A stretch of 64,000 bases of DNA from an uncultured Desulfospira sp. (lineage in GTDB: Bacteria; Desulfobacterota; Desulfobacteria; Desulfobacterales; Desulfobacteraceae): the NCBI GenBank assembly GCA_963663165.1, contig OY760175.1, positions 1,696,001 through 1,760,000 on the forward strand, given 5' to 3'. The notes under the pieces were generated by a model that worked only from the letters and a program-made list of their open reading frames with translations, did not search any database and was not told the DNA's origin. Below, one piece after another: positions 36,781 to 64,000 of this stretch. The translations under genes and the position numbers were made by a program. Position 1 is the stretch's first letter, and each line of letters starts with the position of its first letter.

Positions 36781-36937
36781 AACGGCCACGGGCCGTCTTG
36801 GTTATCCAACCAAGACGGCCCGTGACCGTTGTATAAAAGAATCTGCAAGCTGCTGTAATTCTTTCATGCTTTGTTATGGGCCGGACCGGATTAACAATCC
36901 AATCGGCCCGTGGCCGTTAGTGAGACTTTCATATAAA
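36781..36937. repeat. Copy 2 of the 141-bp direct repeat (36797-36937), overlapping a 50-bp near-perfect palindrome (36781-36830)
   Basis: AACGGCCACGGGCCGTCTTGGTT-ATCC-AACCAAGACGGCCCGTGACCGTT, then AAAGAATCTGCA...GGATTAACAATCCAATCGGCCC...GTTAGTGAGACTTTCATATAAA, matching 35429-35569. Confidence 0.8.
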
Positions 36938-37451: not shown

Positions 37452-37594
37452 ATGCTTTATCGTAAAATCAAAAAAAATGGGGACGAATTATCGATTCTTG
37501 GATTTGGGTGTATGCATCTGCCGCAGACAAACAAGGGACAGTTCGGCTATGGTTTCGGGAAAATAGATGAAGAGCGGGCGAGAAACCAAATTTA
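37452..37594 (+). pseudogene. 5' fragment of aldo/keto reductase gene interrupted by the IS
   Basis: GGAGG RBS, then [24 protein letters not shown]...DEERARNQI. Joins in frame to the 3' fragment when the IS and one TSD are removed. Confidence 0.88.
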
Positions 37595-37767
37595 CAGTGC
37601 TGACGCATGAAAATTTATAGTCAATGATATCAATGACGCAGCTCGATATCCAAAATTATTTTGTCGCAAAATTTAAATAGACAAAATTTCGGCCTTTTGA
37701 TAATGTAGCATAGGGTACGAATGAGCGCCCCCCCAATCGAGACACTACATTTGAAGAGGAGGATGTC

Positions 37768-38643: not shown

Positions 38644-40166
38644 GCAAGCCTATCCGACGCCCCAATCGTGAGGAGATAAAGGCCAAAAGAAAGCAGTTTA
38701 AAAAGGAGCAGAGAAAATTACGTCGGGATGAAGAGGCCAGGGGATTTCAGCCGCCCTCTCATGGCACAATTTCTAACTGCAAATGCCGATATGAAAGTGT
38801 AGAACAGGAGGGGCGCATCCGCAATGAGGCCGTGGCTGAGAAAATGAGTATTTTTCGCGCTAAGCTGCCCATTCTGCTCAAACGTATGGCCAAGATTGAA
38901 GACCCTCGAAACCCTAAGAAGATAAAACACCAAATATCCACACTCATGATCTATGGGATACTGACCTTTGTGTTTCAGATGGCTTCTTGCCGTGAGGCCA
39001 ACAAAGAAATGAGCCGGCCGATGTTCTGGAAGAATCTTCAATATTTTTTCCCGGAGCTTGAAACGCTTCCCCATCATGATACGTTAAAACGCCTATTGTC
39101 TAAGATTGATATCAATCAAATCAAGAAGCTTCATCTCGATCTGGTCAGAGATCTGATCCGGAAAAAGAAATTTCGACGGTACCTGGTCAATGGCTGTTAT
39201 CCGATTGCCATAGATGGTACAGGTAAATTCAAACGCGACTGGCTTTGGGATGAAGAGTGCCTGGAACGTAACATCAAGAAAGAGGATGGCACCAGGAAAC
39301 AGTATCATGTCTATGTTCTGGAAGCTAATCTTGCGTTTTCCGATGGCATGAGCATTCCGCTGATAAGCGAAATCCTGAGCTACACCGAAGGAGATACCGC
39401 TAATGATAAGCAGGACTGCGAACTCAAGGCGTTTTACCGGTTAGCCTCTTGCCTGAAGGCGGCATTTCCCGCCCTAAAAATTATGGTGCTTTTGGATGGG
39501 CTTTATGCCAAGGGCCCCGTGGCAGAAATTTGCCGAACAAACAAATGGCAGTTCATGATTGTACTGAAAGATGACGCTCTACCCAGCGTAATGAATGAAT
39601 TTGAAACGCTTGCCGCACTCGATACAGAAAACTGCCACCAACACACATGGGGCAATAGGAAACAGGTTTTTCGGTGGATCAACGCCATTGACTACCGGTT
39701 TGGTCCGAACGGCAAGAAAAGTCAAATCCTGCACGTTGTTGAATGCAAAGAGAGCTGGAAAGAGGTTAGCCGGGAAAGCGGTCAACCGGAAAAGAAAAAT
39801 AGTCGTCATGTGTGGTTGTCCAGCGAACCTTTGGACAGATTTAATCTTCACGAACGATGCAACATAGCCGCCCGTTCCCGTTGGTGTATTGAAACCGGTA
39901 TTCTCGTTGAGAAACATCATGGATATGAGTACGAGCACTGTTTTTCGTATGATTGGAACGTCATGAAGGGGTATCATGCCTTGATGCGCCTGGGCCATAT
40001 GTTTAACGTTTTGGCCAGATACTCGCAGCGGCTTGCCAGGATTATTGAAGATACCGGCGCACGGGGCCTGATTCGTTTAGTCCGGGATACCATGTCCGGC
40101 CCGTGGCTGGATTACATGTGGCTGGAAGATCGTCTGTCCACTCCCTTTCAACTCCGATTAGTATGA
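38640..40166 (+). CDS. DDE transposase
   Basis: IEDPRNPKKIKH, LPHHDTL, IAIDGT, KQDCELKAF, LLDGLYA, ARSRWCIE. Lies within TIRs. Confidence 0.88.
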   Translation: MSKPIRRPNREEIKAKRKQFKKEQRKLRRDEEARGFQPPSHGTISNCKCRYESVEQEGRIRNEAVAEKMSIFRAKLPILLKRMAKIEDPRNPKKIKHQISTLMIYGILTFVFQMASCREANKEMSRPMFWKNLQYFFPELETLPHHDTLKRLLSKIDINQIKKLHLDLVRDLIRKKKFRRYLVNGCYPIAIDGTGKFKRDWLWDEECLERNIKKEDGTRKQYHVYVLEANLAFSDGMSIPLISEILSYTEGDTANDKQDCELKAFYRLASCLKAAFPALKIMVLLDGLYAKGPVAEICRTNKWQFMIVLKDDALPSVMNEFETLAALDTENCHQHTWGNRKQVFRWINAIDYRFGPNGKKSQILHVVECKESWKEVSRESGQPEKKNSRHVWLSSEPLDRFNLHERCNIAARSRWCIETGILVEKHHGYEYEHCFSYDWNVMKGYHALMRLGHMFNVLARYSQRLARIIEDTGARGLIRLVRDTMSGPWLDYMWLEDRLSTPFQLRLV

Positions 40167-48971: not shown

Positions 48972-50423
48972 TCAAATTCCGCCCATGCACAAATATTTAA
49001 TCTCAAGGTAATCGTCCATCCCATATTTTGACCCTTCCCGGCCGTTTCCTGACGCCTTGATGCCGCCAAAGGGGGCGGCCTCATTGGAAATAATACCCTC
49101 GTTGATGCCGACGATGCCGTATTCAAGCCCTTCGGCCACCCGCCAGACCCGGCCAATGTCCCGGGCGTAAAAGTAGCCGGCCAGGCCAAATTCCGTATCA
49201 TTGGCCATTTTTATGGCCTCTTCTTCGGTATCAAACTTTAATACCGGGGCCACCGGCCCGAAAATTTCCTCTTTAAAGACCCGCATTGAAGGGGTGACCC
49301 CGGTTAAAACAGTGGGCTCAAAAAAGCAGACCCCCAGTTCCGAGGGCTTTCCGCCCAGAACCGCCGTTGCCCCTTTTTCAAGGGCGTCTTCCACCATTTG
49401 GGCCACATTGGCCACAGCTGAAGTGGTAATCATGGGCCCCACAGCTACCCCTTCCTGGGTTCCGGGACCCATCTTCAACGCTTTAACTGCAGCCACCAGT
49501 TTTTTCACAAACGCATCATAAATCCCTGACTGGACAATCAAACGGTTGGAGCAGACACAGGTCTGGCCGGCATTCCGGTATTTGCTGGCCACAGTCCCTT
49601 TGACGGCTTCATCAAGATCCGCATCATCAAACACAATAAAGGGGGCATTGCCCCCCAGTTCCATGGAGGTTTTTTTTACAGTGTCGGCGCAGGCCCGGAT
49701 CAGTTGACTTCCGACCGCTGTAGAGCCCGTAAAAGCAAGCTTTCGGACAACGGGATTCGAGGCCAGTTCGTCCCCGATGGCATCGGTGGCCCCGGCCACG
49801 ATGTTGATCACCCCGGAAGGAATCCCTGCCCTGTGGGCCAGTTCCCCCAGGGCCAGGGCCGATAAGGGGGTAGCCGTGGCAGGCTTGCAGACCACGGTAC
49901 ACCCTGCAGCCAGGGCCGGGGCAATTTTGCGGGTCAGCATGGCATTGGGAAAATTCCAGGGGGTGATGCAGGCCACCACGCCGACCGGCTGTTTGATACA
50001 GACAATCCGCTTGTCCTTTGAAGGTCCTGGAATGGTATCCCCGTAAATGCGCCGGGCCTCTTCTGCAAACCAGCGGATGTAGGATGCCCCGTACCGGATC
50101 TCACCGGCCGCCTCGGCCAGGGGTTTGCCCTGTTCGGCCGTTAAAATCCAGGCCAGATCGTCCACATGGGCCATGACCTGTTCATACCACTTCATCAACA
50201 GGTCCGATCTTTCAAGGGCCGTCAAGGCTTTAAAGGAAGCAAAGGCCCTGTCGGCGGCCTCAATGGCCCTGCGGGTTTCAGCCCCGCCGCACCGGGCCAC
50301 CGAAGCAATGGTCTTTCCGGTGGCCGGGTTGGTCACGTCAAACAGACTGCCATCATCACTGTCCATCCACTGGCCATCCACATAGGCCCCTGTTTTCAAC
50401 AAGCCCTTATCCCTTAATTCCAT
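48972..50423 (-). CDS. gabD: NAD(P)-dependent succinate-semialdehyde dehydrogenase
   Basis: ITPWNFP, FTGST, MELGGNAPF, RNAGQTCVC, EEIFGP, PFGGIKASG. Confidence 0.92.
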   Translation of the reverse strand: MELRDKGLLKTGAYVDGQWMDSDDGSLFDVTNPATGKTIASVARCGGAETRRAIEAADRAFASFKALTALERSDLLMKWYEQVMAHVDDLAWILTAEQGKPLAEAAGEIRYGASYIRWFAEEARRIYGDTIPGPSKDKRIVCIKQPVGVVACITPWNFPNAMLTRKIAPALAAGCTVVCKPATATPLSALALGELAHRAGIPSGVINIVAGATDAIGDELASNPVVRKLAFTGSTAVGSQLIRACADTVKKTSMELGGNAPFIVFDDADLDEAVKGTVASKYRNAGQTCVCSNRLIVQSGIYDAFVKKLVAAVKALKMGPGTQEGVAVGPMITTSAVANVAQMVEDALEKGATAVLGGKPSELGVCFFEPTVLTGVTPSMRVFKEEIFGPVAPVLKFDTEEEAIKMANDTEFGLAGYFYARDIGRVWRVAEGLEYGIVGINEGIISNEAAPFGGIKASGNGREGSKYGMDDYLEIKYLCMGGI

Positions 50424-50457
50424 TGCCTTAAGTTTCCTTCCTTTAATAATGATTCAG

Positions 50458-50540
50458 CCCCCACCGGCCCACCGGCCCACTTTCTCACTTTCTCACTTTC
50501 TCACTTTCCCACTTTCCCACTTTCCCTTCAGCCTTCAGCC
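50458..50540. repeat. Octamer/heptamer tandem repeats
   Basis: (CCCACCGG)x2, (CACTTTCY)x6, (TTCAGCC)x2 between clpB and gabD. Confidence 0.75.
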
Positions 50541-53131
50541 TATCGACCTAATTTCAAATGCTCGCCTGAGGGATCCGCCGTAAACCGAATCACATCCCCT
50601 TTGGTAAACTCTCCTTTAAGCAATGCCATAGACAACGGATTTTCAATTTCCCGCTGGATCATCCGTTTCAAAGGCCTTGCACCGAATCCCGGATCATACC
50701 CGTTCTGGGCCAGCCAGTCCATGGCTGCGTCATCCAGGTTAACCTCAAGATTCCGGGATCTTAACCGCTTGTTCAGGCCGTTGATCTGGATTTTGGCAAT
50801 ATCCTGAATATCTTCCCGGCTCAGGGCATGGAAGGTAATGATCTCGTCAATCCGGTTAAGAAACTCGGGTCTGAACGCCTGTTTTAATGCCTGAGTGACC
50901 CCTTCCTGCCGGTCGGACTCAGACAGGGTGGCATCTTCGCCGGCCGCCTGGATAAACCGGGACCCCACATTGGAGGTCATGATGATAATGGTGTTTCTAA
51001 AATCCACGGTCCGCCCCTGTCCGTCGGTCATCCTTCCGTCGTCCAGCACCTGGAGCAGCACGTTAAACACATCGGGATGGGCCTTTTCAATCTCGTCAAA
51101 CAGGATCACCGAATAGGGCCGCCGTCTCACCGACTCGGTCAGATAACCGCCTTCATCATATCCCACATATCCGGGAGGGGCACCAATCAGCCTTGCCACC
51201 GAGTGTTTTTCCATGTACTCGGACATGTCCACCCTGACCATGGCCTGGTCGCTGTCAAACATAAATTCAGCCAAAGACTTGGCAAGCTCGGTCTTGCCCA
51301 CGCCCGTGGGTCCCATGAAGATAAAGGTCCCGATGGGCCGGTCTTCGGGCTGAAGCCCGGATCTTGCCCGTCTGACGGCATTGGATACGGCGTCAATGGC
51401 GGTCTTCTGGCCAATGACCCGTTTCTGGATATAGGATTCCATGGCCACCAGTTTTTCCTGCTCGCCCTGGAGCATCTTGGATACCGGAATCCCGGTCCAG
51501 GAAGAGACCACCTCTGCCACGTCAGCTTCTTCCACGTCCTCCCGGAGCATCTTCCGGTTTTCCTGGAGGCGGTTCAGCTCCTGCTTCTTGGCTTCAATCC
51601 GTTTTTTTAATTCTTCAATGGTGCCGTACCGGATCTGGGCCACTTTTTCAAGGTCCCCGCTGCGTTCGGCCATCTGGGCCTGGGTCTGGGCCCGGTCTAC
51701 ATCTTCCCTTAACCCGGAAATCTCCTGGATCAGGGATTTTTCATTATCCCAGTGAAGTTTTAAGGGACCCATCTCCTCCTGCATGGCCGCGATCTGCCGT
51801 TCAAGAACTTCGAGCCGTTCTTTTGAGGCGGCATCCTTTTCCTTTACCAGGGCCTGGCGCTCAATCTGGGCCTGGGTGATTTTACGCTGAATCTCGTCAA
51901 TGGCCCGGGGCATGGAGTCGATCTCAATCCGAAGCCTTGAGGCACACTCATCAATCAAGTCCACGGCCTTATCCGGCAAAAACCGGTCGGCAATGTACCG
52001 GTTGGACAGGGTGGCGGCCGCCACGATGGCCGAGTCTTTGATCCTTATGCCGTGGTGGACCTCGTATTTTTCCTTAAGTCCCCTTAAAATGGAGATGGTA
52101 TCCGCCACGGTGGGCTCCTTGGCCATGACCGGCTGGAACCGCCGTTCTAAGGCGGCATCCTTTTCAATATACTTTCGGTACTCGTCCAGGGTGGTGGCGC
52201 CCACGCATCTTAAGGTGCCTCTGGCCAGGGCCGGCTTGAGCATGTTGGAGGCATCTACGGAGCCTTCGGCGGCACCGGCGCCCACGACGGTATGAAGCTC
52301 GTCAATAAAGAGGACCACTTCCCCTTCAGCCGCTTCCACCTCCTTTAAAACCGCCTTTAACCGGTCTTCAAACTCGCCCCTGAACTTGGCACCGGCCAGC
52401 AAGGCCCCCATATCCAGGGCAATCACCCGCCTGTTTTTCAAGCTGTCGGACACATCGCCTTCCACGATTCTCTGGGCCAAGCCTTCCACAATGGCAGTTT
52501 TTCCCACCCCGGGATCACCGATGAGAACCGGGTTGTTCTTCCGTCTGCGGGACAGCACCTGGACAATCCTTCGGATTTCCTCATCCCGTCCGATCACCGG
52601 ATCCAGTTTGCCGGACCGGGCAAGGTCGGTGAGGTCTCTGCCGAATTTTTCCAGGGCCTGGTACTTTTCTTCCGGGTTCTGGTCAGTGACGGTCTGATTT
52701 CCCCGGATATCCTTTAACACGGACAAAATCGCCTCCCGGGTAACCCCGGCCCCTGACAGGATATCCCGGGTCTCCCCTTTCTGGCCGGCAAGGGAAAGGA
52801 AAATGTGTTCTAAACTGACATACTGGTCCTTCATCTTTGAGGCTTCATCAAATGCCAGGTCCAGAATTTTCTTGCCGTCCCGGGAAAGGTACAGATCCGC
52901 CCCCCCGGACACCGTGGGCTTTTTCCCAAGGCCCTCATCAACGGCCCGGTTCAGGGACGCTGTGTCCACCCCGATTTTTTTTAAGATGGAAACCGCCACC
53001 CCCTGATGATCCCCGAGCATGGCTTTAAGGAAATGAATGGGGTCAATGGTCGGATGATGGGCACCCGATGCCAGATCGTGGGCTGCTTGAACCAGTTCCT
53101 GGGACTTTACCGTGAGCTTGTCATATTTCAT
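50540..53131 (-). CDS. clpB: ATP-dependent chaperone ClpB
   Basis: Two AAA+ modules ([16 protein letters not shown]), coiled-coil middle domain, GAPPGYVG. Confidence 0.97.
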
Positions 53132-53333
53132 TTATTTTTCCTTTTCATTATCATTTTCAGTTTATAACAAAAAGTAATGCGATTTGGACCTTGGTCAAGC
53201 CACGCTGAAAAATAAATTTACATTATCCCAAACCAATGCCATTAACTTAAGAGTTTTCATCACTATAAATTGGAACGGCTCTTATTAACATCATGAAGTG
53301 CACATCTCCCAATGCCTGACCCTGTCCGTTACT

Positions 53334-53514
53334 CTCTGTGAAGTTTGGCGCAACCAAACCTTAAGTGTCCTCTGTGGTTTAAAAACATGAAATCCCAAAG
53401 GGATTGAAAGGTTTTTCTTGAAATTCCTGGTTTGTGAAATCAGCGGGCTTCGCCCGCATTTTCTATTCAACCACAGAGAGAATAGAGGTTTGGCTTGCGC
53501 CAAACTACACAGAG
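53334..53514. repeat. Inverted REP/MITE-like repeat pair
   Basis: CTCTGTGAAGTTTGGCGCAACCAAACC...CTCTGTGGTT versus AACCACAGAG...GGTTTGGCTTGCGCCAAACTACACAGAG. Confidence 0.65.
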
Positions 53515-53570
53515 GAAACCTACAAATAACATACTCGATGCTTAAGTTAATGACATTGTATCCCAAACAC

Positions 53571-54734
53571 CTAATTTGTCTCCCAGAAAGGCGACATCTG
53601 CCTTAACCGTTCAATAATGGGCACCATGGCCTCAACAATGTCATCCATTTCCTGGCGGGTATTGTAATGGGACAGGGAAAACCGGATGGTCCCGTGAAGG
53701 GATTTCTGGGGGACCTTCATGGCCATGAGCACATGGGAGGGATCAAGAGAGCCCGAGGTGCAGGCCGATCCGGAAGAGGCGCAGATGCCTTTCTGATCCA
53801 GGAGCATGAGAATGGACTCCCCCTCTACGGCGTCAAAGCCGATGGACAGGGTATTGGGCAGCCGGTGGTCCATATCCCCGTTCACGGAACAGGCAGGAAT
53901 GGTGTCAAGCAGCCGGTTCTGGAGACAATCCCTTAACTCCTTAACCCGGGTGTTCATTTCATCTAAATTCTCTTTGGCCAGTTGGGCGGCCTTGCCAAGG
54001 CCGATAATGGAAACCGTGTTTTCCGTTCCGCCCCGCCGGCCCTTTTCCTGGTGGCCGCCAATAAGAAATGGCGTGAACTTGAGGCCGTTTTTGATATACA
54101 GCACACCAATGCCCTTGGGGGCATGAATTTTATGCCCGGACAAGGAGAGCATGTCCACACCGGTTTTCTTCACGTCAATGGGCACCTTGCCCGTGGCCTG
54201 GACCGCGTCGGTATGAAATAAAATCCCTTTTTGAGCCGCTTCTTTAGCAATCTCGTCAATGGGGAAAATCACGCCTGTTTCGTTGTTGGCCCACATGACG
54301 GATACGATGGCGGTATTCTCAGACATGCTTGAATAGAGCAGGTCCAGGTCCAGCCGCCCCCTGCTGTCCACGGGCACCAGGGTAATCTCATACCCCCGGT
54401 TTCTTTTTAGGTGTTTACACAGGTTAAGAATGGCCGGATGCTCAACCGCTGTGGTAATGATATGCTTTTTTTCGGGGAAAGCGGCAAGGGCCGTGTTAAT
54501 GGCCGCATTATCACTCTCCGTGCCGCAGCTGGTAAACACGATCTCATCCGGGTCCGCATTGATCAGGCCGGCCACATGTTCTCTGGCCTGTTTAACCTTT
54601 TGGGCCACCTGGTCCCCGAAGGTATACATGGAAGACGGGTTCCCGTACATCTCGCCGAAATAAGGAAGCATTGTCTCAATGACCTCATCAGCGACTTTGG
54701 TGGTGGCGTTGTTATCCGTGTAAATAATAGTCAT
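53571..54734 (-). CDS. nifS: Cysteine desulfurase NifS
   Basis: DNNATT, TSCGTESDN, NNETG, HTDAVQ, SGHK (PLP Lys), SSGSACTSGS. Confidence 0.95.
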   Translation of the reverse strand: MTIIYTDNNATTKVADEVIETMLPYFGEMYGNPSSMYTFGDQVAQKVKQAREHVAGLINADPDEIVFTSCGTESDNAAINTALAAFPEKKHIITTAVEHPAILNLCKHLKRNRGYEITLVPVDSRGRLDLDLLYSSMSENTAIVSVMWANNETGVIFPIDEIAKEAAQKGILFHTDAVQATGKVPIDVKKTGVDMLSLSGHKIHAPKGIGVLYIKNGLKFTPFLIGGHQEKGRRGGTENTVSIIGLGKAAQLAKENLDEMNTRVKELRDCLQNRLLDTIPACSVNGDMDHRLPNTLSIGFDAVEGESILMLLDQKGICASSGSACTSGSLDPSHVLMAMKVPQKSLHGTIRFSLSHYNTRQEMDDIVEAMVPIIERLRQMSPFWETN

Positions 54735-54750
54735 GGGTCACCTTCTCGGG

Positions 54751-55323
54751 TTATGCCAGGCCTTGAGCAGCCCGGGTGGATTCAATGATCTGTTCGATCC
54801 GGTCAATGCATTTGCCGCAGCCGCCGCCAGCCTTAAGATAGTTGGTGACATCTTCGGTGGTCTTAAGGTCGTTGTTTTTGACGGCATCCTTAATTTCAAG
54901 ATCGGTCACATCAAAACATTCACAGACCAGGTCTCCTGGTTTCTCAAGGATCTGAACGCCCCGGTAATTGGCAATGGCCTTTTTCAAGGCGGCATGGCCC
55001 ATGACCGAGCAGTGCATTTTGGCTTTGGGAAGCCCCCCTAAATAATCGGCAATATCGTCGTTGGTCACCTTGATAGCCTCATCCAGGGTCATGCCCTTGA
55101 TGATTTCCGTCAGGGCCGATGAGGACGCCACGGCACTGGCGCAGCCAAATGTCATGAAAGAGGCATTGATGATTCTTTCATTTTCATTCACCTTTAAATA
55201 TAAGGTCAGGGCATCCCCGCAATTGAGGGACCCGGTCTCTCCCACCGCATTTGCATCTCTCATGACCCCTACGTTCCTGGGGTTCAAAAAATGGTCTTTG
55301 ACCTGATCAGAGTAATTCCACAT
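54751..55323 (-). CDS. nifU: Fe-S scaffold NifU (IscU-like plus BFD-like domains, no C-terminal Nfu domain)
   Basis: HFLNPRNVG, CGD, FGCASA, LPKAKMHCS, VCECF...GGCGKC. Ends at 190 aa. Confidence 0.9.
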   Translation of the reverse strand: MWNYSDQVKDHFLNPRNVGVMRDANAVGETGSLNCGDALTLYLKVNENERIINASFMTFGCASAVASSSALTEIIKGMTLDEAIKVTNDDIADYLGGLPKAKMHCSVMGHAALKKAIANYRGVQILEKPGDLVCECFDVTDLEIKDAVKNNDLKTTEDVTNYLKAGGGCGKCIDRIEQIIESTRAAQGLA

Positions 55324-55615
55324 GACAGCCTCCCTTATTGATCTGTTTTACGGCCTGCCCCGGGAATCGTGTAACAGGCCTGATGATTTTGCCATGATTT
55401 AAAATACTACATGGTGGTAGATTGTCAAATAGAAACAATGGAGACCGGAAGAAGGGAAACCGCCAGACCGGAAACGGGAGACCGGATGTTACGGACCCTT
55501 TAGGCTGTCTTTTTTTCCATGGTGTAAAAAAACCCGACAAAATGCGGTGCCATTCCCTGCATTGTTTTCCATTCATTTCATTGAATTACAAGCAGTTAAA
55601 CAAAATCCCCCCCAT

Positions 55616-55631
55616 TGGTATGGTCATTGCT
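55616..55631 (+). promoter_or_regulatory. sigma54 (-24/-12) promoter of the aspA-hydF operon
   Basis: TGGTAT-GGTCA-TTGCT fits TGGYAY-N5-TTGCW with GG-N10-GC spacing. Confidence 0.7.
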
Positions 55632-55770
55632 CATACAGGTTTTATCAGCCGTCCGGTACAAGGATATCCCGGCCGGGCCAAGATGAACCGGCAGATTGGA
55701 CGTTTGGGGCATTAAACTTTTAAATTAGGTTGACAAGAGGCAATGACTTATCATATGACCACCGTAACGG

Positions 55771-55838
55771 AAAACAGCCACGAAGGCTTAAAGGTTATCC
55801 CCAGGGATAGGTTTAGGCTTTTGTGGCTGTTTTTTTTT
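55771..55838 (+). terminator. Long leader hairpin followed by a U-tract (attenuator/terminator candidate)
   Basis: AAAACAGCCACGAAGGCTTAAA pairs with TTTAGGCTTTTGTGGCTGTTTT (three G-U pairs), apical TATCCC-CA-GGGATA, then a T-run. Confidence 0.6.
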
Positions 55839-55945
55839 GCGCCGTTGCCCACCCCTTGCAAAAGGGTGCCAAAAAAAGGGAAGGGCCATGGCCCGGTCTG
55901 CCCGTTTGAACTTGATGAAGCACTGTTTTTTACAGGATATCAACC

Positions 55946-57382
55946 ATGAGCAGCAACCAGACATTAATGCGCCGGGAGCGTGACACCTTAGGAGAACTCG
56001 ATGTTCCGGCCACGGCCCTTTACGGCATCCATACCATGCGGGCCATCCACAATTTCCCCTTTTCAACGGCCCGCCTTCCCGAACCGTTCATAAAGGCCAT
56101 GGGACAGGTAAAACAGGCCTGTGCCCTGACGAACCAGACCCTTGGCTATCTTGATCCAAATCCGGGCGAGGCCGTTATCACCGCCTGCAAAGAGCTTGAA
56201 AAAGGCGATCTGTCAGACCACATTCTGGTGGACCCCTTCCAGGGCGGGGCCGGCACCTCCACCAACATGAACGTTAACGAGGTCATTGCCAACCGGGCCG
56301 AACAACTCCTGGGCGGGAATCTAGGCGAATACCGGATGGTTCACCCCATTCATCACGTCAATATGCACCAGTCCACCAATGATGTGTATCCCACGGCTCT
56401 GAAGGTAGCAGCGCTTAAGCTGCTGGTGACCCTGGAAAACGAGATAGAAAAGCTGCAACAGGCCCTCCAGGAAAAGGAGGGGGAATTTCGCAGCATTGTA
56501 AAGGTGGCCAGAACCGAGCTTGTGGACGCCGTTCCCATGACCCTGGGCATGACCTTTGGGGCCTTTGCCGATGCCGCGGCCCGTGACCGCTGGCGTATTT
56601 TCAAGAGCCGGGAACGGATCAAACGGGTCAATCTTGGGGGAACCGCCATTGGTACGGGGCTGGGCGCGCCCAGGGACTATGTGCTGAAGGTGACTGAAAC
56701 CCTGCGGAATATCACCGCTTTACCGGTATCCCGTGCTGAAAATCTCATCGACGCCACCCAGAATATGGACCCTTTGGTAGAAGTTTCGGGCATGCTCAAG
56801 GCCTATGCGGCCAATCTGCTCAAACTGTCCTCGGATTTAAGGCTGCTGTCCAGCGGGCCTGAAACCGGCATCGGGGAGATCATTCTTGACCCCTTGCAGG
56901 CGGGATCTTCCATTATGGCCGGCAAGATCAATCCGGTCATGCCCGAAGCCGTGACCCAGGTGGCGATCAAGGTGATGGGCAACGACCAGACCATCGCCTT
57001 TGCCGCCGGCATGGGCCAGCTTGAACTCAATCACCTCCTGCCGCTGTTAACCCACACTTTTTTAGAATCACTGATGCTGCTGATCAGCGCCACAAAAGGG
57101 CTTTCCACACACTGTATCCCTAAAATCCAAGCCAACCCAAAACAATGTCTGGCCCATTTAGAACGAAGCCATGCGCTGGCCACGGTCCTGGTCCCGGCAC
57201 TGGGATATGCCCGGGTGGAGGAGATCGTCAACGCCGCAAGGGCATCGGGCAGATCCATAAAAGAGGAGATCATCCATCAGCATCTGGCATCACGGGAAAT
57301 TGTCGATACGCTGCTGTCGCCCAAACGGCTGTGTAAACTCGGGTTTACGCCAAATGAATTTGACGGGGTGAACCGGCCATGA
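55946..57382 (+). CDS. aspA: Aspartate ammonia-lyase
   Basis: RRERDTLGE, YGIHT-RA, QGGAGTSTNMN, HVNMHQSTND, GSSIMAGKINPV fumarase/aspartase signature. Confidence 0.9.
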   Translation: MSSNQTLMRRERDTLGELDVPATALYGIHTMRAIHNFPFSTARLPEPFIKAMGQVKQACALTNQTLGYLDPNPGEAVITACKELEKGDLSDHILVDPFQGGAGTSTNMNVNEVIANRAEQLLGGNLGEYRMVHPIHHVNMHQSTNDVYPTALKVAALKLLVTLENEIEKLQQALQEKEGEFRSIVKVARTELVDAVPMTLGMTFGAFADAAARDRWRIFKSRERIKRVNLGGTAIGTGLGAPRDYVLKVTETLRNITALPVSRAENLIDATQNMDPLVEVSGMLKAYAANLLKLSSDLRLLSSGPETGIGEIILDPLQAGSSIMAGKINPVMPEAVTQVAIKVMGNDQTIAFAAGMGQLELNHLLPLLTHTFLESLMLLISATKGLSTHCIPKIQANPKQCLAHLERSHALATVLVPALGYARVEEIVNAARASGRSIKEEIIHQHLASREIVDTLLSPKRLCKLGFTPNEFDGVNRP

Positions 57383-57424
57383 CCCCTGTGGCAGGACTTA
57401 TAAAAACACCGGCTGAAAGGAGAA

Positions 57425-58636
57425 ATGCTTATGTCCAGTAAGGCCCCCCGGGGTGTACGCCTTGTTATTGCACTGGTGGGCCGGCGCAATGCCGGAAAAT
57501 CATCCCTTGTCAACGCCATTGCCGGGCAGGAGATTGCCATCGTTTCCGATCACCCGGGCACGACCACGGACCCGGTGGCCAAGCCCTACGAACTGCTGCC
57601 CTTAGGGCCTGTCACCTTTTATGATACGGCAGGCCTGGATGACGAAGGGGAACTTGGAGACCTGCGGGTCAGGGCCACCCGGAAAATCCTCTGGCGGTCG
57701 GATGTGGCCGTGGTGGTCATTTCAGAGCAAGGCATCACCCATTATGAAAAAAAGATCGTTGATGAAATCCGTGATCTGGACATTCCCTTCCTCATGGTCT
57801 TTAACAAGAGCGATCTGGCCAGGCCTTCAGACCCGGATCTTGCCTTTTGCAGGGAAAACAGCCTGCCTTATCTGATCATCAGTGCAAAAGACAATGTGAA
57901 TATTACGGCAGTAAAAGAGGCAATTATCGACATTGCCCCGCCGGAAATAAAGCGGGAGCCTTTGCTGGCCGGCGACCTCATCAATGAGGGCGACTGGGTG
58001 GTCTGTGTGGTTCCCATTGATCTGGCAGCCCCCAAAGGCAGGCTCATCCTGCCCCAGGTTCAGGTTCTTCGTGAAATCCTGGACTGTGATGCCTTGGGGC
58101 TCATGGTCAAGGAAAAAGAAATTGATGCGGCCCTTTCCGGCCTGCATCGAAAACCGGCCCTGGTGATTGCCGATTCCCAGGTGGTGATGAGCGTGGCCGG
58201 GGACGTGCCCGAAGATATCCCCTTAACCACTTTTTCCATTCTGTTTGCCCGGTACAAGGGGGACATCACAAAGCTTACGGCCGGTGCGGCCGCCATAGAC
58301 GATCTTAAGGACGGGGACCGGGTCCTTATTGCCGAGGCCTGTTCCCACCATCCAGTGGCCGACGACATCGGCCGGGTCAAGATTCCCCGCTGGATCACCC
58401 AGTACACGGGCAGGGATTTGAACTTTGATGTCTATTCCGGCCACGATTTTCCTGAACATCTGGAAAAGTACCGGCTGGCCGTTCATTGCGGGGGATGCAT
58501 GATCAACCGCGTTGAAATGCTGCGCAGAATCAAGGAGTGCCGCCGCCGAGGGGTGGCCATTACCAACTTTGGCCTGGCCATCTCAAAGGTCCAGGGGGTG
58601 CTGGACAGGGTCATAAAGCCCTTTGGAGGGATATAA
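57425..58636 (+). CDS. hydF: [FeFe]-hydrogenase H-cluster maturation GTPase HydF
   Basis: GRRNAGKSS, GTTTDPV, DTAG, NKSD, PIDLAAPKGRLILPQVQ, and EACSHH...HCGGC Fe-S motif. Confidence 0.95.
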   Translation: MLMSSKAPRGVRLVIALVGRRNAGKSSLVNAIAGQEIAIVSDHPGTTTDPVAKPYELLPLGPVTFYDTAGLDDEGELGDLRVRATRKILWRSDVAVVVISEQGITHYEKKIVDEIRDLDIPFLMVFNKSDLARPSDPDLAFCRENSLPYLIISAKDNVNITAVKEAIIDIAPPEIKREPLLAGDLINEGDWVVCVVPIDLAAPKGRLILPQVQVLREILDCDALGLMVKEKEIDAALSGLHRKPALVIADSQVVMSVAGDVPEDIPLTTFSILFARYKGDITKLTAGAAAIDDLKDGDRVLIAEACSHHPVADDIGRVKIPRWITQYTGRDLNFDVYSGHDFPEHLEKYRLAVHCGGCMINRVEMLRRIKECRRRGVAITNFGLAISKVQGVLDRVIKPFGGI

Positions 58637-60309
58637 TGCACCTTCAGGAAAACGGCATTACCTTCGCAGCCCCCCCCTTGAACCGGCTGCCGTCGGTTCA
58701 CAGGAAAATTTTCTGTCCGGGAAACACCTTGATTGTCTGCGTGCAGCTGGCAGACGGGCGGGTGGAAGATGCCTGGAGTACCGGCCGGATGATGCGCAGC
58801 ATGAACCTTTTGCTGCAGGTTATTTCAGATGACCCCGGCCGGCCCTGTTTTGTCCGGCGCGCCCATTGCCTGTGCAACGACGGACATGCCCTGGCTGCGG
58901 TTCGCGCATTAGAGGACCTGGCCGGGATAGCGCCGCCCCGCAGCGCGCTTCTGGTGCGCAGCCTGGTTCAGGCCCTTCGATGTATCCAGGAGCACCTGCT
59001 TCACTTTTATCAATTTCACCTGTCCAACTGGGTCTGTTTAGGGCCGGCCCTGGGGGCTGATCCCGGTAAAACCGCCCGGCTGGCAGATCCATTGAACCGG
59101 GGACCTGATTATTTCAGGCAGGTCCAGGAGCGGTTGCGGCCCCTGGCTGAAAATAAAGGGATCAATGGATTTAATGACCGTTTCTGTGATCATCCGGATT
59201 ACCGTGGAGCCGACGAATTCCATCTGCTGGTTCACAGCCACAGCCTGGAATCCCTTCAAATACAAAGTCTTCTGAACAAGGCCCTGGGGCTGCTTGGCTG
59301 TAAAAACGGCCGGCATCCGGCCTATCAGACAGGCGGGCTGTCCCCGGACATGAACCTTGGACAGGCCGTGCTGCAGCAGCTGCACGGCCTGGTTCGCCAC
59401 TGCCGGGATTTTATTAACACCTCTTTTCTTACCGATCTTGAACAGATGGCCAGGGCCTACCCCCATTGGAAGGACCTGGCCATTGGCAGCACGTTTCTTT
59501 GCCTGGGCGATTTTGCCCGACCCCATGACAGGGGCCTGCTGTTTCCCAACGGCATTACCCGGACGGCAGGCAAAAATCAAATCGTTGATCCGGCCCGGCC
59601 CGATCGGGTCACGGAAGAACACACCCCTAAATGGAAGGACCTGGACACAGAACGGTACCGGCTCAACTTCGGCAGACACGGCCCGGTATTTTTCTGGAAC
59701 AAAGGAAATTTGCCTTGGATTTTTGCTCCCCGCCACGGCAAAGATGCCTGTGAGGCGGGATCCCTTGCCCGGGTGATGGGGGCCTTTACCCAGGGCCGGC
59801 AGGAAGTGTGTAAAGCCGTAAATAACAGCCTGAAGGCCTCCGGCCTTTTGCCGGGGGATATGAACTGTGCACTGGGGAGGCTGTTGTCCCGGGGCATTGA
59901 ATCTTCGGTTCTTTCAAAGGCCGCTTTGGACTGGCTGGATGAACTCAAGACTGAACCGGTCGGCAAACGGGCATTGATGAACCAGAACTTTCGTCTGCCC
60001 CGTACCGGTGTGGGAACCGGAAAGGTGGAAGTGCCAAGGGGATCTTTGATCCATACCATCCAAATGGACAAACACAGAATCATCCGCCATGACTGCCTTA
60101 TCCCGTCCATGTGGAATTTTTCCGTCCGGGATTCAAAGGGCCGGCGCGGCCCCCTGGAACAGGCGCTGCTGGGGACACCGGTGAGAAACCCTGATCATCC
60201 CCTGGAACTTTTACGCATTGTCCACGCCTTTGACCCCTGCAACCCCTGCCATGTGGTGGTCCAGGATGCGGACACCGGAAGGGTCACCCTGTCAGGCCCC
60301 GGGACGTGA
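58636..60309 (+). CDS. Divergent [NiFe]-hydrogenase large-subunit-like protein
   Basis: HALAAVRALED, HLLHFYQFH, APRH, CEAGSLAR, EVPRGSLIH, PSMWNFSVRD-KG-RGPLEQALLGTP, ELLRIVHAFDPCNPC. ATG overlaps the hydF TAA (TAATG). Confidence 0.85.
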   Translation: MHLQENGITFAAPPLNRLPSVHRKIFCPGNTLIVCVQLADGRVEDAWSTGRMMRSMNLLLQVISDDPGRPCFVRRAHCLCNDGHALAAVRALEDLAGIAPPRSALLVRSLVQALRCIQEHLLHFYQFHLSNWVCLGPALGADPGKTARLADPLNRGPDYFRQVQERLRPLAENKGINGFNDRFCDHPDYRGADEFHLLVHSHSLESLQIQSLLNKALGLLGCKNGRHPAYQTGGLSPDMNLGQAVLQQLHGLVRHCRDFINTSFLTDLEQMARAYPHWKDLAIGSTFLCLGDFARPHDRGLLFPNGITRTAGKNQIVDPARPDRVTEEHTPKWKDLDTERYRLNFGRHGPVFFWNKGNLPWIFAPRHGKDACEAGSLARVMGAFTQGRQEVCKAVNNSLKASGLLPGDMNCALGRLLSRGIESSVLSKAALDWLDELKTEPVGKRALMNQNFRLPRTGVGTGKVEVPRGSLIHTIQMDKHRIIRHDCLIPSMWNFSVRDSKGRRGPLEQALLGTPVRNPDHPLELLRIVHAFDPCNPCHVVVQDADTGRVTLSGPGT

Positions 60310-60340
60310 CAAGAAACCGGAAAAAAAGATAAAAGAAGCT

Positions 60341-61351
60341 ATGAACCGGAACACCATATTAGATGCACTTAAAGACCAAACCGGACAAACCGGCCTGTTT
60401 GCGGCAGCCGATCGGGTGCGCAAAGAAAACCTTGGCGACACCGCCCAGCTGCGCGGCGTGGTCCATTTCTCAAATTACTGCCGGTGTAATGACCTTTATT
60501 GCGGCCTGCTTAAAAACAACACCCAATGCCGGCGGTTTCGCATGAGTGAGGATAAGATTGTCGACACGGCCCTGGCCATTGCCCGGGCCGGGTTAAAAAC
60601 CGTGGTGCTTCAGTCGGGTGAGGACCTTTACTACACCCGGCCCATGATCAGTTCTGTGATTGAACGAATCCTGGATAACGCCGATGTGGCCGTTACCTTA
60701 AGCTTGGGAATGCGGTCCAGAGACGACTTTAAGGCCTTTCGGGACGCCGGGGCCCAGCGGTATCTCATGAAGCACGAAACCATGAACCCCGTTCTCTATT
60801 CCAGGATGCGCCCGGGCCAGCAGCTTGCGGACCGGCTTAAAACCATCCATGAGTTGCGGGAACTCGGATACCAGGTGGGGGTGGGCAATATCGTGGGCCT
60901 GCCCGGCCAGACCCTTTCAGATCTGTGCGAGGACATCCTTTTTTTCCAGGATTTCCAGCCGGACATGATTAATATCGGCCCGTTTATTCCCCATGCCCAG
61001 ACCGTGCTTAAGGATGAACCGGCCGGGGACATGGACCTGATGCTGCGGGTGTTTGCCTTAACCCGGATGGTGACCGGCAACACCCATATTGCTGCGGCCA
61101 ATACCGTGGCCACCCTGGACCCGGAACAGGGGCAGTACCGGGCCTTGACTCAGGGCGGCGCCAATGTAATGATGCCCAATTGCAACCCGTTTCAAAAAAG
61201 CCAAAAGGATAAAATTGAATACGAGTTTCAGATAACCACCCATAAACGCTACGTTTCCGTTAACGAGGCCCGAAGCGTCCTTGCCCGGGCCAACCGGACC
61301 GTGGACAAGGGAAAGGGACACTCCCTTAAAATACGAGGAGAACAGGTTTGA
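60341..61351 (+). CDS. HydE-like radical SAM protein with altered cluster motif
   Basis: RGVVHFSNYCRCNDLYCGL, TVVLQSGED, VTLSLG, RYLMKHET, VGLPGQT, IGPFIPH, GANVMMPN. ATG 60341. Confidence 0.85.
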   Translation: MNRNTILDALKDQTGQTGLFAAADRVRKENLGDTAQLRGVVHFSNYCRCNDLYCGLLKNNTQCRRFRMSEDKIVDTALAIARAGLKTVVLQSGEDLYYTRPMISSVIERILDNADVAVTLSLGMRSRDDFKAFRDAGAQRYLMKHETMNPVLYSRMRPGQQLADRLKTIHELRELGYQVGVGNIVGLPGQTLSDLCEDILFFQDFQPDMINIGPFIPHAQTVLKDEPAGDMDLMLRVFALTRMVTGNTHIAAANTVATLDPEQGQYRALTQGGANVMMPNCNPFQKSQKDKIEYEFQITTHKRYVSVNEARSVLARANRTVDKGKGHSLKIRGEQV

Positions 61352-62103
61352 TTAAGGTAGCCATATACGGTAAGGGGGGCATTGGCAAATCCACCGTGGC
61401 CTCATGCATATCCGCCGCTTTAGGGATACAGGGAACCCATGTCATGCAGATCGGCTGCGACCCCAAAACCGATTCCACCATCAATCTTCTGGGGGGAACC
61501 CCGCCGCCGCCCATCCTGCAGTATCTTCAGGAAAACGGGCGGCCCGACACCCTGGACGCCATTGCCAGACGGGGCTTCGGCAATACAATCTGCATGGAGG
61601 TAGGCGGCCCGACCCCGGGTGTGGGCTGTTTTGGCCGGGGCATGCTCACCGCTTTTGAGCTTTTGGACGACATGGGCGCCTATGATGTTTACCAGCCGGA
61701 CGTGGTGCTTTACGACATTCTGGCCGATGTGGTGTGCGGCGGCATTGCCGTGCCCATGCGCGAAGGATTTGCCGATAAGGTCTGTATTGTCACCTCAGGT
61801 GAAAAAATGGCCCTGCTGGCCGCCCAGAACATTATCCTGGCCCTGCGCAATTTTGCAGACCGCAACTATGCTGAACTCGGCGGGCTGATCCTCAACTGCC
61901 GGGATATGGAAAACGAAGCGGAACGGGTAAAGGCCTTTGCCCAGAAAATGGAAACCGCCATTTTAGGGGTGATTCCCCGGGACAGGGCCATCCACACATT
62001 TGAAGAAGAAGGCAAGACCATTGTTGAGGCAGACCGTACCCTGCCCACCTCGGCCCGGTTTTTTGAACTGGCCAAAACCATTGCCGGGTTTGGGGACCTT
62101 TAA
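61348..62103 (+). CDS. NifH-like (nitrogenase iron protein family) ATPase/reductase
   Basis: YGKGGIGKST, GCDPKTDST, GGPTPGVGCFGRG, DVVCGG. TTG start overlaps the upstream TGA. Confidence 0.9.
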   Translation: MIKVAIYGKGGIGKSTVASCISAALGIQGTHVMQIGCDPKTDSTINLLGGTPPPPILQYLQENGRPDTLDAIARRGFGNTICMEVGGPTPGVGCFGRGMLTAFELLDDMGAYDVYQPDVVLYDILADVVCGGIAVPMREGFADKVCIVTSGEKMALLAAQNIILALRNFADRNYAELGGLILNCRDMENEAERVKAFAQKMETAILGVIPRDRAIHTFEEEGKTIVEADRTLPTSARFFELAKTIAGFGDL

Positions 62104-62148
62104 AACATTGCTCAAGGATTGAACAAACACGACCGTAAGGATATTTGT

Positions 62149-63447
62149 ATGGACCTGGATCATGCCCGCATCAGGGTTGAAAACCTGCGTGAGAAATCGG
62201 ATTTTCCCTTTGCCCCCCTGGAAGGGGTGGGCCCTAACCTGGCCGGCTGGGGCGTCATCGAGACCTGCCTGCTGCTGCCGGAGTCGGTGGCGGTCATGGT
62301 CGGGCCTTCGGCCTGCCTGCGCCATTCAGCCTTTATGGCCCATGCCAGGGGATTTACAGAACGGTTTTATATGCTGTGCGTGCCTGAACTTGACATGGCC
62401 ATGGGCAATCACCTGTCCGTGGTGGAAAAGGGCATCAGGGACATTGCAAAAACGCGGCAGGAAAAGGTAATTTTCCTGATTGTGGGGTGCCCGGATTATA
62501 TTCTGGGTACGGATCTTACCGGGGTCATCCGGCGCCTGGAAGCCGCCACCGGGAAAAAGATCATCCCCGGGGCCATGGCACCCATTACCATCGGGCTTAA
62601 ATCATCCCCCTTTGCCTCGGCCTATACCTCGTTTTTCGAGTTCCTTAAGGACACACCCCGGGGTCAAGATGACCGGGTCCTCAACCTTTTGGGCACATTT
62701 ATGCCCCTGTCGGATTCCGGGGAGCTTTATCAGGTTCTGGCCGCCGCCGGCATGGACACGGTACTTCAAATCCCCCTGTGCCGTGATTTAACACAATTCT
62801 CGCGCATGGCCCATGGCCGGGCCTCAGTGGTCCTGCACCCGCTGGCCAACGGCCTTTCCGGCAAAATGGAACAAGAGATGGGCATTCCGGCCTGTTTTGC
62901 GCCAACGTCCTATGGATTTTCCATTATCCGGGAACAGTATGAGAAAATCAGTGAGGCTGTGGGACAGCCCCTTGATACCGGGCCTTATGAACAGGCGGCC
63001 CGGCAGGCGGCGGCCCCCTTGCTGGAGATGCTTTACGGCAAATCGGCCGCCGTGGGATGCAGTATCAACGGCAGCCCCTTTGAGCTTTCCCTGTTTCTGG
63101 TCCAAAGCGGTGTCAATGTGGAAGCCGTTTTTGCCCGGGGCGCCATCAAGCCCTATGAATGGGACCTGATCCAGCAATTGCGTAAGGTAAAACCGGACAT
63201 CCATGTGTACAACGCATCCCATCCGGCCCTGTGCGGACACACCCAACCTTTTGACACCGTGGAACTGGCCTATGGCGTTGATGCGGGTATTTTTTGTGCC
63301 CAGGCCGCCAATGTGCCCCTGTCCCGCTACCAGGAACAAACATACGGGTTTGAAGCCGCTGTCTGGATGCTTGAACAAAGCTGCCGGGCCCTGACCCATC
63401 CGGTGGACAACTATGAGTGGATATACAAACACAACTTTCTCATATGA
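62149..63447 (+). CDS. Nitrogenase component-1 type oxidoreductase subunit (NifD/NifE-like fold)
   Basis: MVGPSACLRH, ELDMAMG, GCPDYILGTD, LNLLG. Follows the NifH-like gene. ATG 62149 after AAGGA. Confidence 0.8.
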   Translation: MDLDHARIRVENLREKSDFPFAPLEGVGPNLAGWGVIETCLLLPESVAVMVGPSACLRHSAFMAHARGFTERFYMLCVPELDMAMGNHLSVVEKGIRDIAKTRQEKVIFLIVGCPDYILGTDLTGVIRRLEAATGKKIIPGAMAPITIGLKSSPFASAYTSFFEFLKDTPRGQDDRVLNLLGTFMPLSDSGELYQVLAAAGMDTVLQIPLCRDLTQFSRMAHGRASVVLHPLANGLSGKMEQEMGIPACFAPTSYGFSIIREQYEKISEAVGQPLDTGPYEQAARQAAAPLLEMLYGKSAAVGCSINGSPFELSLFLVQSGVNVEAVFARGAIKPYEWDLIQQLRKVKPDIHVYNASHPALCGHTQPFDTVELAYGVDAGIFCAQAANVPLSRYQEQTYGFEAAVWMLEQSCRALTHPVDNYEWIYKHNFLI

Positions 63448-63457
63448 GGGATCACCC

Positions 63458-64000
63458 ATGAAAGCATATCATCATCTCCTTCCCCTGGCCACGGGCTATT
63501 TCGGGGTCAGTTCCGCACTTTACAACTTTGGCGGCCTGGTGGTCATCTATGGACCTGCAGGCGGGGCCTGGCACATCAATATCGAGGATGAACCGCGCTG
63601 GTACCGGGGGCCGGCCACAGTGGTGGGGGCGGGCCTGCTGGAAATGGACGTGATCCTGGGCAATGATAACAAATTTATCACCCATATCGTTGAGACCGCC
63701 AAGGGGTTGAATTCCCCTTTTGTGGCCCTGTCAGGCACCCCCATCTCAGAGATTATCGGTACCGATCTTAAGGGATTTGTGCGGAGTGTTGAAAGCCGTA
63801 CCGGCATCCCGGTGTTCATGGTGCCCACGGCCGGTTCCGAACCCTATCCCGAGGGGGCGTCCAAGGCGCTTCTGGCCCTTTCCGACAAAATCATGGATCC
63901 GGATGCCCCTAAGCAGCCCAAAGGGGTTAACATCCTCGGGGCCATTCATCTTTCCACGGGCCGGCAGGCCCATATCGAACCGTTGCTTAACGCCATCCGG
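63458..64000 (+). CDS. Second nitrogenase component-1 type subunit (partial, runs off the window; absent from the ORF track)
   Basis: Open frame from ATG 63458: MKAYHHLLPLATGYFGVSSALYNFGGLVVIYGPAGG...DEPRWY...LLEMDVILG...GTPISEIIGTDLKG...GVNILG. Confidence 0.8.
   Translation, partial: MKAYHHLLPLATGYFGVSSALYNFGGLVVIYGPAGGAWHINIEDEPRWYRGPATVVGAGLLEMDVILGNDNKFITHIVETAKGLNSPFVALSGTPISEIIGTDLKGFVRSVESRTGIPVFMVPTAGSEPYPEGASKALLALSDKIMDPDAPKQPKGVNILGAIHLSTGRQAHIEPLLNAIR

Follow-up and report, generated by a model that had tools for sequence, protein, structure and literature searches.

Maturation of [FeFe]-hydrogenases is described in current accounts, as far as the sections available to us go, as the work of a required set of three proteins (that is, HydE, HydF and HydG), with all of the CO and CN ligands drawn from tyrosine through HydG. 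In many hyd operons, the aspartate ammonia-lyase gene aspA stands beside hydF and supplies the ammonia for the dithiomethylamine bridge, according to the accessible part of one report (PMC11736057). For nitrogenase-like proteins, a 2026 review names, in its accessible text, the finding of functions for orphan clades as a main challenge of the field (PMC13474568). Here we describe a seven-gene operon in which parts of these systems meet. It lies in a stretch of 64,000 nucleotides from an uncultured Desulfospira sp. (contig OY760175.1; hereafter the window, with position 1 as its first letter and with G000 denoting the source genome), and it places aspA and hydF ahead of a [NiFe] large-subunit-like gene (NiFeL), a paralogue of hydE (hydE*), a nifH-like gene and two genes resembling component 1 of nitrogenase (c1A and c1B). 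On the basis of sequence comparisons, we propose that this operon provides a HydG-independent maturation of the [2Fe] subcluster of [FeFe]-hydrogenase, a reading to which we assign a probability of roughly 0.6. The seven genes and their profile scores are as follows.

55946-57382, + strand: aspA (aspartate ammonia-lyase); NF008909, 604.8 bits against a cut-off of 510
57425-58636, + strand: hydF (H-cluster scaffold GTPase); TIGR03918, 548.3 bits against a cut-off of 325.55
58636-60309, + strand: NiFeL; PF00374, 320.1 bits; best NCBIfam equivalog 248 against a cut-off of 600
60341-61351 (alternative TTG start 60218), + strand: hydE*; TIGR03956, 265.1 bits against a cut-off of 254.6
61348-62103, + strand: nifH-like ATPase/reductase; PF00142, 251.6 bits
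62149-63447 (alternative TTG start 62119), + strand: c1A; PF00148, 94.5 bits
63458 to ~64657 (alternative ATG start 63413; L002:8414-9658), + strand: c1B; PF00148, 98.1 bits for the whole protein

All seven families that a preliminary description of this DNA had named are thus present and co-oriented by profile scores, and the tight packing that it reported (overlaps or gaps below 50 base pairs (bp)) holds as well: hydF runs into NiFeL through TAATG (a 1-base overlap), hydE* and the nifH-like gene overlap by 4 bases and the remaining intergenic gaps in the run are all 42 bp or shorter.

The link to [FeFe]-hydrogenase comes from the gene content of the source genome and from the position of the block in other genomes. 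The source genome encodes two canonical HydA proteins (PF02906), one of the periplasmic HydAB type with a small subunit bearing a twin-arginine translocation (Tat) signal and one of a cytoplasmic type of 618 residues, both of which carry the TSCCPxW, MPCxxKxxE and ExMxCxxGCxxGGGQP motifs. In profile searches, the operon hydF is the sole HydF gene of this genome above the cut-off, and hydE* is its sole HydE-family gene. No HydG was found in the source genome, either with TIGR03955, for which the best match (36.8 bits against a cut-off of 312.15) was hydE* itself, or in a whole-genome tblastn search with two HydG proteins, which matched the hydE* region alone; two relatives represented by metagenome-assembled genomes (MAGs) give the same picture of HydA present and HydG absent. 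Given the sole HydF and HydE-family genes, the two HydA genes, the missing HydG and the placement of the block behind hydA-hydB-aspA-hydF elsewhere (see below), the evidence points to H-cluster maturation, and the role outside H2 metabolism that had been proposed for the operon is not upheld.

The operon is far from peculiar to this genome. A homologue search of NiFeL against 5.8 billion proteins returned about 55 homologue clusters at 39-99% identity, after which identity fell to 25-26%, and a 400-genome sample of the phylum searched with NiFeL gave solely ordinary large subunits (30-36% identity). Two close module loci belong to MAGs titled Desulfospira and Desulfobacter, and a survey of Desulfovibrionaceae identified 24 module carriers among 401 genomes, spread over 14 of 72 genera. 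For synteny, 23 genome loci from two families (including 20 of the 24 Desulfovibrionaceae loci) were searched by tblastn, with all seven proteins as queries. NiFeL-hydE*-nifH-like-c1A-c1B proved colinear in each of the 23 and in five metagenome loci in addition, and the aspA-hydF pair lay directly upstream of this core on the same strand in seven loci and nearby in three more (10/23). Across 37 loci examined, hydE* was always linked to the nifH-like gene. Identity to the source genome over the 23 loci was 66-90% for HydE*, 76-95% for the NifH-like protein, 65-92% for c1A, 61-93% for c1B and 38-81% for NiFeL, and the ratio of non-synonymous to synonymous substitution rates (dN/dS) against the two closest relatives lay at 0.10-0.20 for most genes, with NiFeL higher at 0.28-0.35. 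Purifying selection acts on every one of the seven, and the cluster is a real conserved unit rather than a chance juxtaposition. Of the outcomes that the preliminary description had named as fatal to its proposal, two were checked and neither was seen: the gene order extends beyond this genome under selection that is not relaxed, and no hydG or hydA lies downstream (see below).

Comparison of L080-L099 with L002, and thereby of Desulfovibrionaceae with Desulfobacteraceae, gives identities of 61-85% for the module proteins, 52-72% for HydF and 54-70% for AspA, and the flanks are variable; module identity above that of HydF and AspA, together with these variable flanks, suggests that the block moves horizontally. 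Clustering of open reading frames (ORFs) found no other flanking family common to more than 6 of the 23 loci, although this clustering missed hyp genes that tblastn found.

If the module stands in for HydG, its carriers might be expected to differ from their relatives in hydG content, and they do. Across the 32 module genomes, HydA was present in 31 and HydF in all 32, and HydG scored above the cut-off in 4; for the 24 Desulfovibrionaceae carriers, the corresponding counts were 23, 24 and 4. The control set was drawn as 80 further genomes of the 401-genome Desulfovibrionaceae sample, one of which (G479) carries the module as judged by c1A, leaving 79 controls. HydA occurs in 39 of these and HydG in 25 of the 39, compared with 4 of the 31 HydA-positive carriers (Fisher p = 2e-5, with kinship ignored). 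The module is thus strongly enriched in HydG-free genomes. Moreover, hydG and canonical hydE are in decay in several carriers. The canonical Desulfovibrionaceae layout is hydA-hydB-(hydG)-aspA-hydE-hydF; in G475, G494 and G499, hydA-aspA-hydE-hydF is kept and hydG is gone, in G440 a HydG remnant of 132 residues (residues 3-134) is all that is left, just upstream of aspA, and in G668 the canonical hydE is down to 198 bits. Of the 24 carriers, 14 have HydE* as the lone member of the HydE family that was found, and so do G479 and the source genome. As a separate observation, nine Desulfovibrionaceae genomes (G404, G405, G420, G427, G430, G434, G471, G472 and G483) hold a full-scoring HydA and none of HydE, HydF, HydG or the module c1A; six of them are 99% complete.

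A second form of the module, which places it squarely within hydrogenase operons, emerged beyond these two families. Homologues of c1A at 43-51% identity include proteins with the source names Thermodesulfobium narugense and Lebetimonas, and judged by such protein-match names alone, Thermodesulfobium and Lebetimonas may belong to the module carriers. A metagenome scan for the module gave 14 loci, and a c1A profile search of the phylum sample added four more carriers (G077, G111, G175 and G285) from three genera and two further families of the same phylum. The absence of HydG, predicted in advance for these four genomes, held in 4/4 (the best matches, at 37-46 bits, were hydE*), and HydA adjoins the module in all four. 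In each of the five loci that show the upstream side (L118, L129, which shares a contig with L115, L130, L131 and L132), the order is hydA-hydB-...-aspA-hydF-hydE*-nifH-like-c1A-c1B on one strand, with no NiFeL. As the second form has no NiFeL, the universal unit is hydE* together with the nitrogenase-like trio, at the position that hydE and hydG would take in a hyd operon, and NiFeL is limited to the form seen in Desulfobacteraceae and Desulfovibrionaceae. What the preliminary description called an 'orphan' [NiFe] large subunit accordingly remains without a small subunit, but is an accessory of one module form and no universal part. The idea of NiFeL as the client of the module was dropped, given its absence from the second form.

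The same arrays bring the Hyp proteins into the neighbourhood. In L130, L131 and L132, the order is hydA-hydB-TM1266-hypE-hypC-aspA-hydF-hydE*-nifH-like-c1A-c1B-...-hypF-hypD (with a toxin-antitoxin pair between c1B and hypF in L130); the encoded HypC, HypD, HypE and HypF score as equivalogs or family members, and neither hypA nor hypB (that is, the genes for nickel insertion) is among the ORFs annotated in these three arrays. In the form with NiFeL, tblastn on 20 Desulfovibrionaceae loci placed hypC no more than 128 bp past c1B, and in the same orientation, in 13 of them, followed by hypD in 9 and by hypE in 9 of the 20, and three metagenome loci are alike. The source genome has a single hypC-hypF-hypD-hypE set, at 4.12 Mb.

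Several side observations were made on these arrays and on the c1A family. Toxin-antitoxin-type genes lie within the arrays at L119:2939-3744, L118:6205-6877, L130:11095-11684 and L115:12734-13165; insertions comprise a HepT/nucleotidyltransferase pair between c1A and c1B, a TumE-like gene between aspA and hydF and, ahead of hypF, DUF433/PIN pairs or a PIN gene. A second hypF in G285 is a stand-alone gene (G285:C1:101532-103760, L133), about 50 kb from the array copy and with no hyp neighbours. The c1A profile matches 219 cluster representatives at E <=1e-30, far beyond the orthologues (150-290 bits), and these distant relatives look like a wider, uncharacterised nitrogenase-like clade in sequence terms. 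Many of the distant matches (the group of proteins P0145-P0289) have lengths of 770-1000 residues and are matched over two stretches, a pattern suggestive of two-domain fusions.

At the residue level, the altered metal ligands that had been noted in NiFeL, HydE* and the component-1 proteins were confirmed on 23 orthologues, and the impression that HydF and the NifH-like protein are intact was likewise borne out, the former scoring as a full equivalog and the latter keeping its P-loop and both cluster Cys residues. For NiFeL, the orthologues were aligned with canonical large subunits from the genomes analysed. C80, H84 and C535 are present in 23/23 and C538 in 22/23, so that both Fe-bridging Cys and one terminal Cys (three of the four large-subunit Cys ligands) are kept; the canonical Cys1 (that is, the first Ni ligand) is replaced, by His in 14/23, and a Cys occupies a canonical Gly position in 20/23. 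In large subunits, the two retained inner Cys are those that bridge to the Fe(CN)2(CO) iron. The PRG motif and the C-terminal tail are also kept, and the His three residues past the last Cys, which marks the C-terminal processing site of large subunits, is absent. Among solved chains, NiFeL comes closest to the periplasmic [NiFe] large subunits of Desulfovibrio (422 bits with a NiFeL profile), and identity to true large subunits is 31-36%. No small-subunit partner was found among the window genes, nor any further conserved flanking family in the 23 loci. Apart from NiFeL, the source genome contains two loci for large subunits of [NiFe] type in which a TGA stands in frame, a feature of selenocysteine enzymes (4597005-4598309, L005 and L006; 3148876-3150126, L007 and L008).

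HydE* carries CX3DX2C in place of CX3CX2C, with the middle Cys changed to Asp in all 23 orthologues and in three distant ones, whereas Cys occupies that position in the solved HydE and in nine of nine canonical HydE proteins from related genomes. An extra Cys is found one or two residues past the first in 20/23. Identity to canonical HydE of the same family is 36-41%, and the alignment to the solved Thermotoga HydE (318 bits; residues 36-306 of 357) includes many identical blocks.

The trio that follows hydE* is nitrogenase-like and distant from each characterised type. The NifH-like protein has the P-loop GKGGIGKS and the cluster residues C94 and C130 in 23/23; its nearest solved chains are NifH proteins, and it nonetheless falls short of the equivalog cut-offs for nifH (271.9 against 394) and CfbC (268 against 402), as well as those for BchL and BchX. 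Elsewhere in the source genome, a NifH-family match is found in an open frame of 812 residues (G000:C1:2841025-2841813, L013). c1A is cysteine-rich, with eight conserved Cys, and C66, C124, C393, H69, H240 and H368 stay unchanged as far as its distant members. When c1A is aligned with solved alpha chains, C124 falls on the Cys of CPxGLIGDD. Opposite the Cys of the cHRS motif of those chains, which is the cofactor-binding residue, c1A has no Cys, although the neighbouring His does align. The nearest solved chains of c1A are 9fmg_A and 9d9u_A, both titled 'Nitrogenase' (E 1e-11 to 1e-16), which are probably chains of methylthio-alkane reductase. c1B has nearly no conserved Cys, with a lone C304 in 21/23, and has an invariant His- and acid-rich motif, YGPAGGAWHINIEDEPRWYRG. 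Its nearest solved chains are NifE (E 2e-5), which is also the best match of distant c1A proteins. An inter-subunit cluster held by Cys residues of both component-1 subunits was not found: c1B has no conserved Cys at the motifs concerned, and c1A keeps C66 and C124 but varies at the third position (C, S or T).

How such parts might replace HydG can be envisioned as follows, although this more specific scheme is tentative and, in our judgement, falls a little short of even odds: the H-cluster would be built in several lineages through a HydG-free route in which CO and CN come from HypCDEF and an iron unit is converted by a nitrogenase-like enzyme together with HydE*. On a similarly tentative footing, the lineages using this Hyp-fed route would be Desulfobacteraceae, Desulfovibrionaceae and the two further families of the same phylum. 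HypCDEF would build the Fe-cyanide/carbonyl unit from carbamoyl phosphate, as for [NiFe] enzymes, and NiFeL, where present, may receive or adapt the Hyp-made Fe(CN)2(CO) unit and, in sulfate reducers, hand it over. The ATP-driven NifH-like reductase, a NifEN-like scaffold formed by c1A and c1B, and HydE* could then generate a diiron carbonyl-cyanide precursor, in which case the trio and HydE*, with its Cys-Asp-Cys cluster site, would take over from HydG and, in most genomes, from canonical HydE as well. Finally, HydF would add the dithiomethylamine bridge using ammonia from AspA and load HydA. By analogy with other hyd operons, we infer that AspA here supplies the ammonia for the dithiomethylamine bridge of the H-cluster.

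Several observations weigh against HydG-independent maturation or against this way of achieving it. Four of the 32 module carriers keep HydG, with the full HydE/F/G set, so that the module is not strictly alternative to HydG. The Fisher test overstates the case, because the genomes are related and the module seems mobile. HydA without HydG is also encountered in non-carriers, so that the absence of HydG proves little by itself: 14 HydA-positive controls have no HydG, of which 9 are also without HydE and HydF, and the other 5 (drafts of 40-170 contigs) have both HydE and HydF, these two proteins having been searched for in the 14 HydG-negative controls. In its CN:CO ratio, the Fe(CN)2(CO) unit does not fit the [2Fe] subcluster, and this mismatch of the Hyp product would require further ligand exchange. 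No hyp gene lies within about 10 kb of the module in the source genome and its two closest relatives. The number of hypF copies is one in G077, G111 and G175 and two in G285, and the array-borne hyp genes may simply serve [NiFe] enzymes. Furthermore, as HydE* lacks the canonical radical S-adenosylmethionine (SAM) triad, HydE-type chemistry cannot be assumed for it.

Other explanations for the same gene set were therefore weighed. The trio and HydE* might act as an ATP-driven accessory that delivers very low-potential electrons or Fe-S units, or that repairs and reactivates HydF or HydA, leaving HydG unreplaced and the diatomic ligands to another source. Such a role would be in keeping with NifH-type proteins being ATP-dependent low-potential donors in all characterised relatives, as stated in the accessible text of the 2026 review (PMC13474568), with the four module genomes that have a full HydE/F/G set, and with the roughly 1% activation obtained from trace cellular diatomics when HydF and HydE alone were co-expressed, as given in the available part of that study (PMC9431212). 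However, the skew towards HydG-free genomes (4/32) and the HydG remnant argue for functional replacement, and the recurrent hypC, hypD, hypE and hypF neighbours point to a source of diatomic ligands rather than to electrons alone; we therefore regard a purely accessory role as unlikely. Somewhat harder to credit is a module that makes or loads a different, new organometallic cofactor, destined for NiFeL or another enzyme, with HydF and AspA shared or co-regulated and with HydA otherwise matured or inactive. The near-complete metal site of NiFeL and its tail, which resembles that of a real pre-large subunit, would suit this idea, as would the ligand sets of HydE*, c1A and c1B, which are unlike those of characterised relatives; an orphan HydA is, moreover, not rare in Desulfovibrionaceae, where maturase-free HydA occurs in 9 of 39 HydA-positive non-carriers. 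Yet NiFeL is missing from the form in the two other families and is thus not a universal target, the block of the second form lies within hydA operons (between hydF and hypF), the module HydF scores as a normal equivalog in sole copy, and it would be left unexplained why a HydG remnant persists and why canonical hydE next to hydA has been lost in carriers.

Least plausible of all, and in our view highly improbable, is fortuitous adjacency, in which an ordinary hydF-aspA pair happens to have as neighbours a nitrogenase-like operon with no relation to it and a hydrogenase gene in decay. The core does have varying flanks, with no other family in more than 6 of 23 loci (a count from the clustering that missed hyp genes), but its order is kept in 23/23 loci and in 5/5 of the second form, coding regions overlap, dN/dS is 0.10-0.35 even with NiFeL included, and hydE* never occurs apart from the nifH-like gene in 37 loci. 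HydG-independent maturation of the [2Fe] subcluster therefore remains the reading that we prefer.

The surroundings of the operon in the window contain the following features.

53571-54734, - strand: nifS, divergent; TIGR03402, 610 bits
54751-55323, - strand: nifU, divergent; TIGR02000, 289 bits
55616-55631, + strand: candidate sigma-54-type -24/-12 motif TGGTATGGTCATTGCT; pattern match upstream of aspA

Both the divergent nifU-nifS pair and the sigma-54-type promoter of the preliminary description are recovered here, the latter as a predicted motif about 315 bp from aspA. The sigma-54-like pattern occurs twice in the window, where 0.35 matches would be expected, and the closest relative (L050, a locus of the Desulfospira MAG) retains the motif as TGGTATACTCATTGCT. 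The nifU-nifS adjacency is present in L050 and absent from L051 and from 20 Desulfovibrionaceae loci; nifU and nifS are general Fe-S assembly neighbours of the operon, and their inclusion in the unit was dropped, given that the adjacency is confined to the closest relative. No hydA, hydG, small-subunit, hyp, nifB or nifEN gene was detected by the ORF profile scan, either among 34 ORFs of at least 110 residues at window positions 1-49000 or among the genes at 49000-64000, in agreement with what had been stated, and outside the operon the scan showed no other member of the hydrogenase or nitrogenase systems. The DNA past position 64000 holds the end of c1B (the operon ends at about 64657) and then a convergent sulfatase-family gene; no hydG, hydA or ABC transporter gene is present just downstream of c1B, and the possibility of a downstream hydG or hydA, and with it that of an ordinary maturation locus, was dropped.

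Two further stretches of the window are recorded as side observations. Between the sigma-54-like motif and aspA, about 200 bp (55690-55890) that are absent from the closest relative contain a promoter-like pair (TTGACA...TATCAT) and a GC-rich hairpin followed by a T run; Rfam gave no match for the region upstream of aspA, and the stretch might encode a small RNA, act as an attenuator or represent a small insertion. At 34800-37700, about 3 kb have no ORF longer than 109 residues and no Rfam match, and adjoin a DruA-like gene (37768-38643) and a gene with a transposase-associated domain (38640-40166).

If HydG-independent maturation is borne out, it would mean a second origin for the CO and CN ligands of the H-cluster, cross-talk between [NiFe] and [FeFe] maturation and, for an orphan nitrogenase-like clade, a first functional context. 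It would explain both the 'broken' [NiFe] large subunit and the Asp-substituted radical-SAM paralogue, and offer new parts with which hosts equipped with Hyp proteins could be made to produce active [FeFe]-hydrogenases. Should the Hyp-fed route hold, this would be the first case of a nitrogenase-like system that acts in the synthesis of a hydrogenase cofactor, and the three great assembly lines for Fe-S and organometallic cofactors would be directly bridged in biochemical terms. In line with the preliminary description, which knew of no system combining all three, a search of the full-text literature (with most subscription journals and supplements outside its scope) found no description of this cluster or of a HydG-independent route. 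A term search of the accessible text of the 2026 review of nitrogenase-like systems (PMC13474568) returned no HydE, Desulfovibrio or Desulfobacter, and three uses of 'hydrogenase' that are unrelated. The group VI paralogue of Elusimicrobia, as presented in the available part of its report (10.1101/765248), differs in context, with many radical-SAM genes and a proposed tetrapyrrole role.

Set beside the known systems, the operon shares something with each and coincides with none. With HydE/HydF/HydG it has in common a full HydF equivalog, aspA next to hydF, canonical HydA targets and an alignment of the HydE type; it differs in having no HydG, a CX3DX2C paralogue of HydE, and three nitrogenase-like genes plus NiFeL inserted. 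Relative to HypCDEF and the [NiFe] large subunit (group 1, periplasmic, of Desulfovibrio), NiFeL shares the PF00374 domain and the bridging Cys, and hypC, hypD, hypE and hypF flank or interleave the module in many relatives, whereas NiFeL lacks a small subunit, the first Ni-ligand Cys and the His after the last Cys, and scores below equivalog cut-offs. As in nitrogenase assembly (NifB, NifEN and NifH) and in dark-operative protochlorophyllide oxidoreductase (BchLNB), CfbCD and methylthio-alkane reductase, a NifH-like ATPase is combined with two component-1 paralogues, and, as in nitrogenase assembly, a radical-SAM-family gene is found, here directly upstream, although it is of the HydE type and not NifB. 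The similarity to these nitrogenase-like systems is very weak (E 1e-5 to 1e-16 for component 1 against solved chains), c1B has no conserved cluster Cys, and the context is that of hydrogenase maturation. Taken together, the system looks like a variant of [FeFe]-hydrogenase maturation that has recruited parts never linked to it before.

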